DNA of 64,000 nt from Rhizomicrobium sp. (GTDB lineage Bacteria; Pseudomonadota; Alphaproteobacteria; Micropepsales; Micropepsaceae). The first letter of the stretch is position 1. Each line of letters begins with the position of its first letter. A model generated the notes under the pieces. It saw nothing but the letters and a program-made list of their open reading frames with translations. It was not told where the DNA came from and made no database searches. Below, one piece after another: positions 3,472 through 55,002 of this stretch. The stretch is taken from the NCBI GenBank assembly GCA_036502185.1, contig DASXYZ010000002.1:2688-66687 (forward strand), given 5' to 3'. A program made the position numbers and the translations under genes.

Positions 3472-4215
3472 TCAAAAAAACACCTCCCCCGCGGAGATGG
3501 TGCGCAGGCGCGACGGGTGTTCGCGCAAAAGGAGCGCGCCGCTGCCGTCGATGCCTTCGAACACGCCGCTGGTTTCCCCGCCCCCGAGCCGCGCCCGGAT
3601 TCGTGCGCCAAGCCCCGCCGCGCGCACGAGCCATCCGTCGCGAACCGGCTCGAATCCCTGTTCCGACCAGATGTCATACCATCGCGCCCAGGCGCGGGCG
3701 AGCACGGTCAGGGCGCCACGCGCCGGAGGGGTTTCGCAGTTCAGCGCGGCAAGCGAAGTCGCCGGAAACTCCGTTCGTTCGGGATGCGTTGCGAGATTGA
3801 TCCCGATGCCGACCGCGAGCCAGTCGGGCCGGGTGCCGTCGTTGCTCGCCGACTCAAGAAGAATACCGGCGATCTTGCGGCCGCAGACGAGCACGTCGTT
3901 TGGCCATTTCACCCGCACGTCCGTCGGCGGCGTGTAGCGGGCGACCATATCCGCAACGGCCAATGCCGCGACGAAGGAGAGTTGCGCGCATTCCGCGACG
4001 GGCTTCTTCAGCCGCAGAAGAAGCGTCGAGGCAAGATTTCCCGCGGGCGCTTCCCAGATGCGCCCGCGCCTTCCGCGGCCTTGCGTCTGCCGGTCGGCAA
4101 CAATCCAGAGCGGCGCCGGAGCGCCAGCGCCAGCAAGACGGCGCGCTTCGGCATTGGTCGAATCGAGTTCGGCGAAGTGGCGGAGGCCATAGCCGGCCGG
4201 CCAGGCTTCGCTCAC
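3472..4215 (-). CDS. birA: Biotin--[acetyl-CoA-carboxylase] ligase
   Basis: DSTN, QTQGRGRRGR.W, KWPNDV, KIAGILLE, AGEV motifs; GTG start overlaps the nuoN stop (GTGA). Confidence 0.93.
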   Translation of the reverse strand: MSEAWPAGYGLRHFAELDSTNAEARRLAGAGAPAPLWIVADRQTQGRGRRGRIWEAPAGNLASTLLLRLKKPVAECAQLSFVAALAVADMVARYTPPTDVRVKWPNDVLVCGRKIAGILLESASNDGTRPDWLAVGIGINLATHPERTEFPATSLAALNCETPPARGALTVLARAWARWYDIWSEQGFEPVRDGWLVRAAGLGARIRARLGGGETSGVFEGIDGSGALLLREHPSRLRTISAGEVFF

Positions 4216-5654
4216 GAGATGATCGCCTTGGCGCCCACCGCGGCGGCAGCGACCAGCGGATACGCGAACAGTACAAAAAACACATTGAACACGCTCGCGC
4301 CCGCCATGATCGAACCCAGCGGCGCCCCGATCGCCGCATCGAATGCCGGCGCCGGTTCGTCGAAATACATGATCTTGACGATTCGGAAGTAGTAGTAGGC
4401 GCCGATCACGCTCGCGATGACGCCGAGAATTGCGAGCGCGTAGAGATGCGCATCGATGGCGGCGAGGAAGACGTAGAACTTCGCGAAGAAGCCCGCGAAG
4501 GGCGGAATACCCGCAAGGCTCACGAACAGGATCGCAAAAGCGAGCGCGAGCCGCGGATCTGTACGGGCAAGACCTGCCAGGTCGGGAATGGTCTCGACCA
4601 TTTTGCCCTGCCGGCGCATGGCCAGAATGCAGACGAAGACGCCGGCATTGGTGACGACGTAGATCGCAAGGTAGATCAGGACGCCTTGCACGCCCTGGTA
4701 CGTGCCTGCGGCGATGCCCATCAGCGCGTAACCCATATGGGCGATGGAGCTGTAGGCCATCAGGCGCTTGATGTTGGTCTGCCCGATCGCGGCGATCGAG
4801 CCCAGGAACATCGACAGGACAGAGACAAAGATCACGATCTGCCGCCATTCGTGAATTGCGCCGGGCATCGCCACCAACATCGCGCGCACGAACAGCGCCA
4901 TGGCCGCGGTTTTGGGCGCAATCGAGAAGAACGCGGTGATCGGCGTGGGGGCGCCCTCGTATACATCCGGGGTCCACATATGGAATGGCACCGCGGAGAC
5001 CTTGAAGGCGAGGCCAGCGATCAGGAAAACAAGGCCAAACACAACCCCGATATTGGTGCCGGCATGGGCGACCGCGCGCGCCACCGCGGGAAAATCTGTC
5101 GTCCCGGCAAAGCCGTAGATGAACGAGATGCCGTAAAGCATCATTCCCGATGAGAGCGCGCCCAGCACGAAATATTTGAGCCCGGCTTCGCTCGAGCGTA
5201 CCGAATCGCGATCAAAGGCGGCGAGCACGTAAAGCGACAGGCTCTGCAGCTCGAATCCGAGATAAAGGGCGATGAAATTCGTCGCCGACACCATGAACAG
5301 CATGCCGATGGTGCCGAGGAGCACGAGCACGGAGAATTCGAAACTGGCGATCTTCTCCCGTTCGAGAAAATCCTGAGACATGAGGAGCGCAAGCGCCGAG
5401 CCGAGCAGCACGAGGATTTTTGCGTAACGTGCGAACCCGTCGGCCGCAAAGGCGCCCCCGAACGCCGAGTGCGCAGTCGTGAGCGGCGCCACCACGAACC
5501 AGCCCGCCACGATGAGCGCGCAGATGGCCGAAACAAGAACCGGACGGAAGGTCGCGCGCCCGCCCACCGCGCCTACCATCAGCAACCCCATGGCGGCGAG
5601 CGCGAGCAGGCATTCCGGGAACAGGACGAGAATGTTGGTGCCAATGCTGGTCAT
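4212..5654 (-). CDS. nuoN: NADH-quinone oxidoreductase subunit N
   Basis: [35 protein letters not shown]; position in operon. Confidence 0.97.
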
Positions 5655-7321
5655 GGCAGAAGCTCCGCGGCCGTCGCTCCAGACCTTTCCTCCCCCGTCG
5701 TGGGAGAGGTGTCGAGTGGAGCGAAGCGGAACGAGACGGAGGGGGAAGAGTCGACAATATCACTGCCCCCTCCGGCGCGCTGGCGCGCGCCACCTCCCCC
5801 ATGCTGGGGGAGGAACGCCAAATGCGTATCATTCTCGCCTCGCATCGCCAGGCGATGCTGCGCGACGAGGTTGGCGACGGAGACGGAGGTCTCGTCGAAG
5901 ATAATGCGCGGGTAGACGCCAAGCACGATGGTGAAGGCGACGAGCGGCGCCAGAATCGCGATTTCGCGCGCGCTCAGATCCTGCATGACCTTCAGCGCCG
6001 GCTTCACCAGCGCGCCGAAGATGACCCGCCCGTAGAGATAGAGCATGTAAGCCGCCGAGAGGATCAGGCCCGTGGTCGCGAATATCACCACCCAGGTGTT
6101 GACGTGGAAGGTGCCGAGCAAGGTCAAGAACTCGCCGACGAAACCGCTCGTCCCCGGCAGCCCCATATTGGCGAGGGTGAACACCATGAAACAGGCGGCA
6201 TAGACGGGCATGCGCTCGACGAGGCCGCCATAGGCCGCGATCTCGCGCGTGTGCAGGCGGTCGTACACCACGCCCACACAGAGGAAGAGCGCCCCCGACA
6301 CAATGCCATGCGACAGCATCTGGAAAATGCCGCCGTCAATGCCCTGCTGCGTCAGCGAGAATATTCCCATCGTGACGAGGCCCATATGGGCAACCGAGGA
6401 ATAGGCAATGAGCTTCTTCATATCCTCCTGGGCGAGCGCCACGAGCGAGGTGTAGACGATCGCCACAACCGAAAGGACGAAGACGAGCGGCGCGAACAGC
6501 TCCGATGCGTTCGGCATCATCGGAAGTGAGAAGCGCAGGAATCCGTAGCCGCCCATCTTGAGCAGGATGCCGGCAAGGATGACCGAACCCGCCGTCGGCG
6601 CTTCTACGTGGGCATCCGGTAACCAGGTATGGACCGGCCACATCGGCATCTTGACCGCGAATGAGGCAAAGAAGGCGAGCCACAACCAGGTCTGCATGGC
6701 CGGTGAGAAATGGGCCGTACGGATCAGCGTGTCGATGTCGGTGGTGCCGGTCTGGAAATAAATCGACAGGATCGCGAGCAGCATGAGCAGCGATCCGAGC
6801 AGCGTGTAAAGAAAGAACTTGAAGCTCGCATAGACGCGCCGCGCACCGCCCCACACGCCGATGATGAGGAACATCGGAACCAGTCCGCCCTCGAAGAATA
6901 CGTAGAACAGCACGAGATTGAGCGAGGTGAACACCCCGATCATCATTGTTTCGAGAAGGAGGAACGCGATCATGTATTCCGGCACGCGCTCGGTGATCGA
7001 TTTCCAGCTCGCGAGAATGCAGAACGGCATCAGCCCCGCCGTCAGCACCACGAACAGCATCGATATTCCGTCCACGCCGACACGATAGGTGATGCCGGTG
7101 CCGAGCCACGCCGCCTGTTCGACGAACTGGAAAGCGGCCGAGGAGCCGTCGAAGCGGGCCCAGACGATCAGCGCCACGGCGAGATTGCCGATCGTCGTCG
7201 CGAGCGCAATCACCCGCGCGGTCTGGGCAAGCGACTCGCGGCTGCCGCGCGCCACCAGAATGAACAGCGCACCCGCAAGCGGCAGGAAATTGGCAATGGT
7301 CAGGAGGGGCACGTGGTTCAT
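5651..7321 (-). CDS. nuoM: NADH-quinone oxidoreductase subunit M, with a 43-aa repeat-derived insertion near the C-terminus
   Basis: [41 protein letters not shown]; the tail contains the element at 5687-5815. Confidence 0.97.
5687..5815. repeat. Palindromic REP/MITE-like element inside the nuoM coding sequence
   Basis: Ends TTCCTCCCCC / GGGGGAGGAA are exact reverse complements; terminal sub-hairpins; inner GGAGGGGG / CCCCCTCC pair; 129 bp = 43 codons; same architecture as 54418-54658. Confidence 0.85.
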
Positions 7322-53115: not shown

Positions 53116-53267
53116 GCGCGAACATCCCGCTCTGAACCTGTCGGCGGGACACTACTCATCCCGCCACGAATGGCGGTAGGTGCATTTCGTCGCGCAGTCG
53201 GAAGCCTTGGCACGGAGCGTTGCGCCGCGTAATGATTCCCGCCCGGTTGGGTTGCGGGGGGTCGCAG

Positions 53268-54164
53268 ATGTGGGCGCGTTGGGCCGTTCTCCTTGCGGGG
53301 TGCATCGCGCTATGCGGCTGCGGACCAAGTCTCAAGGATTTCGCCGAAACCGGGATGAACTCATCGGCACCGAAGTACAACACGACGGAATGCTTGGCAG
53401 CGCGGCAGGAGGCGATCCGCGCCGCGGACAAAGCAGTCGCCGAATCGGTATTGATTCTCGGCGCAGATGCGCTTGCGGTCGCGACGCTACCGGTCGCGCC
53501 TGTCGTCATCCCCAGTTTTGCCAATCAGAGCCGGGGCGCCGTGCACAATCTTCGGCAATCCTGCGGGGAAGAATCCTTTCTGCCCCTCCTTGAGAACAAG
53601 GCGCGCGAGGGGGATGCAAATGCCGAGGCATGGATGGGACAGGCTTACGACAATGGAACTGTCGTGAAAAAGGACCCCGCGCAGGCCGTGTATTGGTACA
53701 AGCTCGCCGCGGTACAAGGGAACACCGATGCCGAGATCAATCTGGGTGCCCACTACGCGGCGGGTAATGGCGTCGCGAAAGATGACGCCCGCGCCATCGA
53801 ACTGTGGCAAGCGGCCGCCCGGCACCGCATCCCGCAGGCGGAAACCAACCTCGGACAGTTCTACGAGGACGGACGCGGTGTCGCGCGGGATTTTTCAAAG
53901 GCAGAGCAATTCTGCCGCGCCGCCGCTGTCCAGGGATTCGGCGACGCCCAGTTCCTGCTTGGCGGAATGTATGAAAAGGGAGAGGGCGTTCCGCAAAGCG
54001 ATGTCGTCGCATATCGCTGGTACATTCTTGCCGACCGAAACGGCGCGAAAGGCACGGATGAGAGGCGCACGCCGCTCATGCAGCGGCTTTCGCAAAACGA
54101 CAAGAACGTTGCCGACCGGCAGGCGCAGCACTGCCTCGACACGCTGTACAACGAGTGCCCGTGA
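53268..54164 (+). CDS. Sel1-repeat lipoprotein
   Basis: Lipobox LCGC; about four Sel1 repeats (A..WY..AA.QG...A..NLG..Y..G.GV.KD). Confidence 0.85.
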   Translation: MWARWAVLLAGCIALCGCGPSLKDFAETGMNSSAPKYNTTECLAARQEAIRAADKAVAESVLILGADALAVATLPVAPVVIPSFANQSRGAVHNLRQSCGEESFLPLLENKAREGDANAEAWMGQAYDNGTVVKKDPAQAVYWYKLAAVQGNTDAEINLGAHYAAGNGVAKDDARAIELWQAAARHRIPQAETNLGQFYEDGRGVARDFSKAEQFCRAAAVQGFGDAQFLLGGMYEKGEGVPQSDVVAYRWYILADRNGAKGTDERRTPLMQRLSQNDKNVADRQAQHCLDTLYNECP

Positions 54165-54417: not shown

Positions 54418-54658
54418 TTTCCTCCCCCGGCGCGAATGCGCTGGGGGAGGGGGACCGCGAAGCGGTGGAGGGTGTTCGCGATCGATGCGCGCGTTCTGGC
54501 CGGCCAAACTGTGTTACGCATCTCGCTCACTAGCCGGACCTTTGCGGCTCAAGAAACACGGGCCGCATGTGTAATCCAGCTGCGGCCGTCGCATTCTCGG
54601 CGGCAGGCCCCCTCCACCGCTTCGCGGTCCCCCTCCCCCGCCTTGGGCGGTGAGGAAA
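54418..54658. repeat. Palindromic REP/MITE-like element, same family as the nuoM insertion
   Basis: Ends TTTCCTC / GAGGAAA; long inverted match GGGAGGGGGACCGCGAAGCGGTGGAGGG vs CCCTCCACCGCTTCGCGGTCCCCCTCCC around a ~130-bp core. Confidence 0.85.
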
Positions 54659-54693: not shown

Positions 54694-55002
54694 TCAATGC
54701 GTCCAGGGAATCTTCCGGTCGAAGCGAAAATTGTCGGAATAGGATTTGGGCCGGGCCTTGGACGGATGCGCATCGAAGACCTGATAGGGAATCTCGTGCC
54801 GCTTCGCGTAGGCGACCGCTTCCTCTTTGGTATCGAATTCGAGCACGACCTGGCTGCGCATGTCGTCGGAACTCGTCCAGCCCATGAGCGGCTCGACGGT
54901 GCGCGGCCGCTCCGGCTCGAACTCCAGCACCCAATGTTTGGTCAGCGCGCGGCCGGCCTGCATCGCGGTGCGCGCCGGGCGATAAATTCTCGCAAGCATC
55001 AC
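54694..55002 (-). CDS. ETC complex I accessory subunit (NDUFS4-like)
   Basis: ARIYRPARTAMQAG, W.LEFE, EPLMGWTSS.D...QV.L.F..KE.A, SYSDNF. Confidence 0.92.
   Translation of the reverse strand: MMLARIYRPARTAMQAGRALTKHWVLEFEPERPRTVEPLMGWTSSDDMRSQVVLEFDTKEEAVAYAKRHEIPYQVFDAHPSKARPKSYSDNFRFDRKIPWTH

Follow-up and report, generated by a model that had tools for sequence, protein, structure and literature searches.

How does a palindromic repeat come to lie in frame within a core respiratory gene, and what lets it stay there? The question is raised by nuoM, the gene for subunit M of complex I, in a 64,000-nucleotide stretch of DNA from Rhizomicrobium sp. (positions 2,688 to 66,687 of the forward strand of contig DASXYZ010000002.1, assembly GCA_036502185.1), which is referred to as the window. 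Near its 3' end, shortly before nuoN, nuoM contains a 129-bp nested-palindromic repeat. Based on the analysis reported here, we consider it quite probable that this element is a translated selfish passenger in the free tail of NuoM and that it is filtered by the coupling of nuoM to nuoN.

A palindromic repeat in the reading frame of nuoM

The two genes, their junction and the parts of the element have the following window coordinates.

4212..5654, minus strand: nuoN, 480 residues (open reading frame (ORF) list; NCBIfam equivalog cut-off passed)
5651..7321, minus strand: nuoM, complex I subunit M, 556 residues with the insert (ORF list)
5651..5654, minus strand: ATGA in which the nuoM stop overlaps the nuoN start (direct reading)
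5654..5686, minus strand: native last 11 nuoM codons, which hold the nuoN Shine-Dalgarno sequence GGAG, 8 nt ahead of the ATG
5687..5815, minus strand: nested-palindromic repeat, 129 bp or 43 codons, in frame, NuoM residues 503-545
5793..5813, minus strand: in the nuoM sense, the 5'-terminal hairpin, CCTCCCCC-ATGCT-GGGGGAGG; with its TT/AA ends it encodes FLPQHGGGG
5774..5791, minus strand: spacer hairpin GGCGCGC..GCGCGCC between the terminal hairpin and the inner arm
5766..5773, minus strand: inner arm, CCCCCTCC on the plus strand and GGAGGGGG in the nuoM sense; mirror image of the purine arm of the hairpin
5746..5765, minus strand: variable centre of the element (from the alignment of family copies)
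5738..5745, minus strand: second inner arm, GGAGGGGG on the plus strand; pairs with 5766-5773
5710..5737, minus strand: second spacer, subfamily type TGTCGAG..CGAGAC
5687..5709, minus strand: in the nuoM sense, the 3'-terminal hairpin, TTCCTCCCCC-GTCGT-GGGAGAGG, in which one position is mismatched; its peptide is TSPTTGEE

An earlier note on this DNA had described an in-frame element of 129 bp, bounded by exact inverted repeats, in the last part of nuoM and encoding FLPQHGGGG...SPTTGEE. Coordinates, repeats and frame are all as it gave them, and the peptide corresponds to NuoM residues 503-545. On the plus strand, the element starts with TTCCTCCCCC and finishes with GGGGGAGGAA, and its terminal inverted repeats are 10 bp long and exact. 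Counted together with its reverse complement, the terminal 10-mer is found three times in the window, where 0.15 occurrences are expected, and none of 100 shuffles reached three. The RNA of the element folds with -78 kcal/mol (z = -6.1), and the element ends 33 nt ahead of the nuoN start. When both flanks were joined by a script, the product was a NuoM of 513 residues with the ATGA overlap with nuoN intact, precisely the empty-site product that had been claimed. Because the stop and start codons overlap, nuoM has no spacer ahead of nuoN; the GGAG ribosome-binding site of nuoN stays outside the element.

The identity of NuoM as complex I subunit M/ND4 follows from an equivalog-level match across the full core (NCBIfam NF004499; 846 bits compared with a cut-off of 585; residues 2-500), and the 502-position profile is exhausted by residue 500. 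The nearest solved chain is Nqo13 of Paracoccus denitrificans (8qby_M, 513 residues; E = 1e-191), which aligns to residues 6-490. The genome that was searched (G000; 3.14 Mb, 88 contigs, 92% complete) gave one match and thus has one copy of nuoM.

AlphaFold2, run with a 29-sequence alignment, returned a model that is confident for the core of NuoM, with a predicted local distance difference test score (pLDDT) of 80.6 and a predicted template modelling score of 0.82. In this model, the last helix spans residues 472-502, and residues 500-556 are coil with a pLDDT of 25-33. The insert contains eight glycine, six serine and four proline residues among its 43 residues, has a net charge of about -2 and, judged from the model, is probably disordered. 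Because the loops between transmembrane helices (TMHs) 2 and 3 and TMHs 6 and 7 of ND4 are on the periplasmic side (PMC11522691) and the subunit has 14 similarly oriented TMHs (PMC3046159), the segment past TMH14, and hence the NuoM tail, would by analogy be periplasmic. In the paralogue ND5 of Paracoccus, a disordered periplasmic insertion of 44 residues follows TMH14 (PMC11522691), and this insertion is a precedent for tolerance. Thus, of the earlier proposal that the insert sits in a soluble tail after the last transmembrane helix, the position past the last ordered helix stands, but the tail appears to be periplasmic rather than simply soluble. In a search of tail residues 490-556 against 5.8 billion proteins, only the protein itself was matched.

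Empty sites, age and recurrence in related species

The genus is rich in metagenome-assembled genomes (MAGs), with more than 229 species in the collection; in 42 of its genomes and in two outgroups, we read the end of NuoM and the junction of nuoM with nuoN. The nearest records that bear a name, at a NuoM identity of 72-75%, are MAGs from soil under the labels Rhizomicrobium sp., Hyphomicrobiales or Alphaproteobacteria. In about 30 same-genus NuoM proteins, the tail past the SVSV motif has 24-44 residues, compared with 78 residues in the window protein; its common form is ...DHAPKLA, followed by 7-15 residues and then by ATGA or GTGA overlapping nuoN. Aligned to these short-tailed orthologues, the window NuoM shows the clean gap of 43 residues that the earlier note had anticipated, with HLA opposite KLA, and orthologues without the palindrome have no equally long homologous tail. 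The ATGA or GTGA overlap is kept in all 42 same-genus genomes. With frame and overlap retained, the translational coupling of nuoM and nuoN would therefore be kept as well. Two to five in-frame TGA codons were seen in G101, G110, G083, G067, G054 and G100 where the query tail was aligned past residue ~195; here, the search probably read through the real stop into the nuoN overlap. Public metagenome contigs were also scanned with the left flank, which catches both filled and empty alleles; the scan gave a single match, which we rejected as a chance match since the sequence upstream of it is not nuoM.

In a maximum-likelihood tree built on the NuoM core, the window genome falls in a well-supported clade of 12 species with tails of 41-136 residues. 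Its sister is G184, with a core that is 94.6% identical and an insert whose junctions match those in G000 both on the left (ggcg|TTC) and on the right (GGAA|[a/g]GGTC). Aligned to the window element, the G184 insert scores 83.5 when flipped and 48.5 in the same sense, and shuffles score 28 +/- 5 with a maximum of 47. The two elements are 66-68% identical, as compared with an identity of 67.7% at third codon positions of the flanking nuoM. The G184 branch is 3.4-fold longer, which fits that the window copy has diverged by just 13-16% from its genomic siblings. Since the copy in G184, though decayed, has the same junctions, the insertion would be older than the split between G000 and G184. We infer from these comparisons that a single insertion before the split was followed by neutral decay and then, between the 23-bp terminal inverted repeats, by inversion in place, a simple event that keeps length and frame. 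The statement in the earlier note that coding insertion resembling that of Rickettsia palindromic elements (RPEs) is happening in this bacterium is borne out with respect to RPE-like behaviour, but the decayed copy at the same junctions in G184 shows that it overstated recency.

The same tail is occupied in other members of the clade. G010 and G153 have a type-A element at the same codon as the window insert, and G138 has a single decayed hairpin left at the insertion codon, most of the copy being lost. The tail of G132 contains a different doublet plus a solo half, that of G131 two or three modules, and those of G150 (L039) and G120 (L040) a palindrome with arms of tandem GCGGAGAC units. In G104, the tail contains an unrelated repeat (z = -1.6) with the peptide DKLGMR...PEPVEGR, translated ...DKLGMRVNRTALGS...PQPEPVEGRMAS..., and resembling what we take to be a widespread alphaproteobacterial repeat found in many "hypothetical proteins". 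Expanded tails are also found in two other lineages; outside the 12-species clade, G096, G080 and G109 have long NuoM tails. The DNA of long tails folds strongly in 10 of 12 cases (z of -2.9 to -9.4), compared with z of -2.8 to +1.6 for short tails; the two long tails without a strong fold are those of G104 and of G184, with its decayed copy (z = -0.7).

Across lineages, at least six tail states can be distinguished, all of them in frame and all ending in the ATGA/GTGA overlap. In none of the genomes read does nuoM stop inside an element. At the control junctions, NuoL and NuoN end in or directly past the last transmembrane helix and are expanded in no clade member. Among family copies, two thirds of the reading frames are stop-free and the length of 8 of 18 doublets is divisible by three; for these reasons, we rejected an open frame without a stop as evidence from a single case. 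The chance that a single insertion is in frame and open is roughly 0.25-0.3 and, at this chance for each, six or more independent in-frame states therefore argue for a frame filter. The count of independent events is uncertain; it is a lower-bound estimate, which in-place replacements could bring down.

The repeat family and its likeness to known elements

Copies of the family were sought by BLAST and with an nhmmer profile in the 3.14-Mb genome. As the earlier note had proposed, the element has other genomic copies, with about eight further full-length copies in addition to partial ones. The closest are 84-87% identical to the nuoM copy.

Full copies, contig and position: C60:20003, C82:91292, C44:24472, C44:50214, C47:9452, C60:82146 and C56:56933

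These copies share a plan in which a terminal hairpin, TTT-CCTCCCCC-(at least 5 nt)-GGGGGAGG, is followed by a small self-hairpin spacer, an inner arm GGAGGGGG, a variable centre and then the same three parts inverted. The terminal hairpin is present at 44 loci in the genome, among them the doublet at 54418-54658. Spacer stems vary from one subfamily to another yet are self-complementary in each (GGCGC..GCGCC, GGTTTGC..GCAAACC, ACCGC..GCGGT and GCCGCC..GGCGGC). The arm GGAGGGGG is the mirror image of GGGGGAGG and not its complement; it lies 7-40 nt past the hairpin in 32 cases, compared with 7 and 6 cases for two control arms. No target-site duplications were seen at any full copy, and the flanks of the genomic copies have no common target motif. 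A half-module with 86-88% identity is present in Sphingomonas and Chelatococcus replicons, and the family therefore spans alphaproteobacterial orders; the full doublet plan is found at ~174.8 kb of Sphingomonas parapaucimobilis NZ_CP155750.1, with a SPOR-domain gene on one side and serB on the other. Half-modules of a similar type are also present in Sphingomonas sanguinis and in Chelatococcus plasmids. The copy number of the terminal hairpin is 3 in G184, 44 in G000 and 205 in G132, and this swing among close relatives indicates rapid bursts and extinctions of the family.

With genes judged from ORFs and from the third-position GC signal (G+C of about 0.8 at third and about 0.45 at second codon positions), nearly all family copies are intergenic, 3-60 bp off gene ends. 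A genome scan for in-frame copies, which had been suggested earlier as a check, found only two coding overlaps besides nuoM, both of them C-terminal extensions at gene 3' ends. In an amidohydrolase (G000:C31:65728-67062, minus strand), the conserved end ...VMKSGRVVR is extended by ~35 residues via a type-A half-element (...RVVRTGVSSPAKGGGGGPRSGGGGLTRANASRKTNEKRPHY, followed by the stop). In a sulfotransferase-like ORF (C82:91354-92217, minus strand; the PF03567 match is weak and below cut-off), the last ~23 codons and the stop come from an element of the nuoM subfamily. Among these three coding cases, nuoM is the only one where translation regains the native C-terminus.

Insertion of RPEs into Rickettsia genes is the classic case of repeats within genes (Ogata et al. 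2000, as summarised in PMC10969869 and PMC3733652). RPEs and Wolbachia palindromic elements are multicopy palindromic repeats of ~100-150 bp without coding capacity of their own, and they lie in frame within essential genes, where they add a peptide at fold-compatible positions. In the same way, the nuoM element is a 129-bp palindrome with about nine full doublets and 44 hairpin loci in the genome, and it lies in frame at a permissive site (NuoM 503-545, past the last ordered helix). However, it ends in TTTCC/GGAAA (TTTCCTCCCCC...GGGGGAGGAAA) and not in the terminal CGTC tag reported for RPE-4 and RPE-6, and it has no sequence relation to RPEs, RPE consensus sequences not having been compared. 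Moreover, its host is a free-living high-GC soil bacterium, and 3 of about 44 loci touch real coding sequence, all at gene 3' ends and with the remainder intergenic or in 5' untranslated regions (5'-UTRs), while nearly half of the copies are intragenic in some RPE families. Thus, the nuoM element is not a member of the RPE family and only behaves like one.

By citing RPEs as the known case, the earlier note implied a novelty that is too high. Repetitive extragenic palindromes (REPs) wholly within ORFs of free-living bacteria have been published for Opitutus, Thauera, Xanthomonas, Stenotrophomonas, Erythrobacter and Sphingopyxis (Di Nocera et al. 2013, PMC3733652). Two of the hosts, Erythrobacter litoralis and Sphingopyxis alaskensis, are Alphaproteobacteria; repeat clusters encode 43-82 residues, and REP ends give stop codons (PMC3733652). 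The kind of event described here is, therefore, already known. REPs and REPINs resemble the family in that short hairpins form inverted doublets, for the most part a short way downstream of genes, with a minority that is read in frame and encodes 20-80 residues, some providing stops or C-terminal ends. By contrast, the nuoM element has no GTAG or CGTC tag, and the modules are longer, ~50 bp with three arms. A RAYT flanked by repeats was not found among the four to five IS200-like Y1 transposase (PF01797) genes of the genome, which have no family hairpin within 1.5 kb (the nearest is at 15 kb) and of which two are at contig ends.

PF01797 genes, contig and positions: C77:22500-22832, C45:3998-4333, C85:2364-2528 and C55:252071-252394

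The BoxC/PIT/TMECO repeats have the pattern CCCTCNCCC-N3-6-GGGNGAGGG-N3-GGGNGAGGG and in E. coli are described as always intergenic, with five inverted pairs (Holder et al. 2015, PMC4666352). Their three blocks, a pyrimidine run, a purine run and a mirror purine run, recur here as CCTCCCCC, GGGGGAGG and GGAGGGGG. Further likenesses are a first loop of 3-6 nt (5 nt here), the frequent arrangement in inverted pairs ~100 bp across, the G/C-richness and the lack of target-site duplications and of an associated mobility gene. The arms differ (CCTCCCCC/GGGGGAGG/GGAGGGGG as opposed to CCCTCNCCC/GGGNGAGGG), and so does the second loop, which is a self-hairpin of 16-28 nt instead of 3 nt and thus exceeds the 1-6 nt that the ITxF definition sets for both loops; one genomic copy, on C31 near 67160, has a 1-nt second loop. 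The canonical TMECO pattern has no match in the 3.14-Mb genome. Miniature inverted-repeat transposable elements, or MITEs, such as ERIC, Correia/NEMIS and Nezha are, like the nuoM element, 70-300 bp long with terminal inverted repeats, form strong RNA hairpins and occasionally give rise to in-frame fusions with host ORFs (PMC10969869); they differ from the family in that it lacks target-site duplications. A parent insertion sequence with the same ends was not identified, a search for one with TTTCCTCCCCC ends not having been made.

An Rfam search with the element returned only plant and animal microRNA hairpin models, and these matches are not real because they score 18-24 bits compared with gathering scores of 64-168; a phage search gave no match. 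In other words, the element acts like an RPE, a REPIN or a BoxC doublet but is not a demonstrable member of any named family. We speculate, with considerable reservation, that the ~50-bp half-module, in which the stem of the structured spacer co-varies from subfamily to subfamily, may be an undescribed relative of the BoxC/triplex motif that spans alphaproteobacterial orders and keeps its third arm for a putative fold at the DNA level or a recognition step. The NuoM tail might then be a recurrent landing pad, with new copies homing to existing hairpins and flips between the terminal repeats rewriting the peptide without breaking the frame.

Persistence of the element and its implications

We suggest the following model for the entry and persistence of the element. 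The element would be a non-autonomous inverted doublet of ~50-bp modules, each with a hairpin of C-run and G-run, a spacer that forms a small hairpin, and a mirror G-run, and the usual place of its family would be just beyond gene 3' ends. In the L-M-N block, NuoM alone would have a free tail, in the form of ~30 poorly conserved, unstructured residues past the last helix on the presumably periplasmic side. The repeat would have entered this tail before the species split from its sister. Translation would pass through the insert and return to the 11 codons with which nuoM natively ends, to the ribosome-binding site of nuoN and to the ATGA overlap; owing to a length divisible by three and an open frame, the element would persist. 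Selection would act only as a filter on frame and coupling, with frame-keeping insertions surviving. The element is, therefore, most likely a tolerated selfish passenger without a function of its own. Several points weigh against this model. The low pLDDT of the tail is in part a forced outcome, since no homologues in the alignment cover this region. Also, the number of independent events is uncertain, as some tail states could be in-place replacements or gene conversions, and recurrence at the junction could reflect benefit and not mere permissiveness. Finally, the draft state of the genome (88 contigs, 92% complete) leaves room for a second nuoM or for missing copies.

Instead of one ancestral insertion with a flip, G000, G184 and other clade members might have acquired independent, sequence-specific insertions at the same target. 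Certain REP families target specific palindromes (PMC3733652), the G000 and G184 elements are oppositely oriented (83.5 flipped compared with 48.5), and the element at this codon in G010 and G153 is of another subfamily. However, both junctions are identical in G000 and G184, and hits at the same nucleotide would need more coincidences; genomic copies have neither a shared target motif nor target-site duplications; the divergence of the two copies (66-68% identity) matches that of the neutral flank (67.7%) and fits the 3.4-fold longer G184 branch; and an inversion between the 23-bp terminal repeats is simple and preserves length and frame. We consider independent insertion unlikely on these grounds. 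More doubtful still is a role at the RNA level, where the hairpin would be kept because it protects the polycistronic nuo mRNA from 3' exonucleases, is a site of RNase processing or slows nuoN translation relative to that of nuoM; the earlier note had raised an effect on nuoN translation or mRNA decay as a possibility. While the fold is strong (-78 kcal/mol, z = -6.1) and ends 33 nt before the nuoN start, ribosomes in translation would melt it; and while several lineages have palindromes of different families at this junction, about 30 species, most of the genus, have no hairpin here, the sister copy has decayed to z = -0.7 without a sign of replacement and G138 has lost most of its copy. REP and MITE hairpins can stabilise or destabilise neighbouring mRNA (PMC3733652), but in vivo, PIT/BoxC elements showed no promoter, terminator or polymerase effects (PMC4666352), and permissiveness alone explains why NuoL and NuoN are unexpanded.

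That the 43 residues were co-opted as a functional periplasmic extension of NuoM, in contact with a subunit, a lipid or an assembly factor, is very improbable. Lineage-specific extensions do stabilise complex I interfaces, as in the C-terminal extension of Paracoccus ND6 (PMC11522691), and the frame would have been retained since before the G000/G184 split. Yet the peptide is not conserved, in that it is wholly changed by the flip in G184, and peptides unrelated to it are encoded in other clade members; a search of 5.8 billion proteins gave no relative of the tail, its DNA diverges at the neutral rate, and both its composition (G8/S6/P4 of 43) and a pLDDT of 25-33 indicate disorder. Least of all do we expect an assembly artefact, i.e. 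a repeat misplaced into the nuoM of a MAG, for which the draft state in 88 contigs and the lack of an independent metagenome contig with the junction could be cited. The element is only 129 bp long and, because it differs by 13-16% from every other copy, it is not a collapsed repeat. In addition, it lies within an 89.6-kb contig with the frame perfectly kept, and an element is present at this site in relatives whose assemblies are independent (G184, G010, G153, G132 and others).

Read as a tolerated passenger, the nuoM element adds to the published in-ORF repeats a clean example in a core respiratory gene, a comparative series in which one tail is repeatedly occupied by several repeat families, an apparent in-place flip, and a three-arm module that varies the triplex-motif theme and provides a data point on the nature of BoxC/triplex-type repeats. 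It suggests that selfish DNA within coding genes, in the style of Rickettsia, operates also in free-living high-GC soil alphaproteobacteria and there in a core respiratory gene. With palindrome gains, decay, deletion and a flip in a single gene tail across about 45 related species, the junction amounts to a natural experiment. Because all surviving states keep the frame and the stop/start overlap, the proposed filter, consisting of coupling and a disordered periplasmic tail, is directly testable.

For annotation, the family implies that repeats are often the source of odd, long, Gly/Pro/Arg-rich tails at the C-terminus and of extensions at the N-terminus in genomes of this kind, with the amidohydrolase and gyrB as examples. 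A nuoM-subfamily copy at C60:20003-20131 lies ~20 nt upstream of the conserved gyrB start, in the same orientation and frame as in nuoM. Because it precedes the conserved start, the longest ORF falsely adds ~70 residues to GyrB; GyrB homology begins after the element, and we rejected this copy as coding. As a strong hairpin in the gyrB leader, it could have an effect on expression. In-ORF copies on C55, C30, C40, C63, C67 and C68 and at C60:46704 were likewise rejected, as they lie within the first 60 codons of ORFs stretched to the first possible start; the best reading of them is as 5'-UTR copies that give false extensions at the N-terminus.

The window contains a second doublet, which the earlier note had assigned to the same family as the nuoM element.

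54418..54658, no strand assigned: 241-bp doublet, intergenic, of the same superfamily, with type-A inner arms GGGACCGCGAAGCGGTGGAGGG

It is indeed intergenic and has the terminal hairpin module in common with the nuoM element, but its different inner arms place it in another subfamily. It is preceded by a Sel1-repeat gene (53220-54164) and lies 35 bp downstream of an NDUFS4-family gene (54694-55002; PF04800, E = 1e-36), which encodes another complex I-associated protein.

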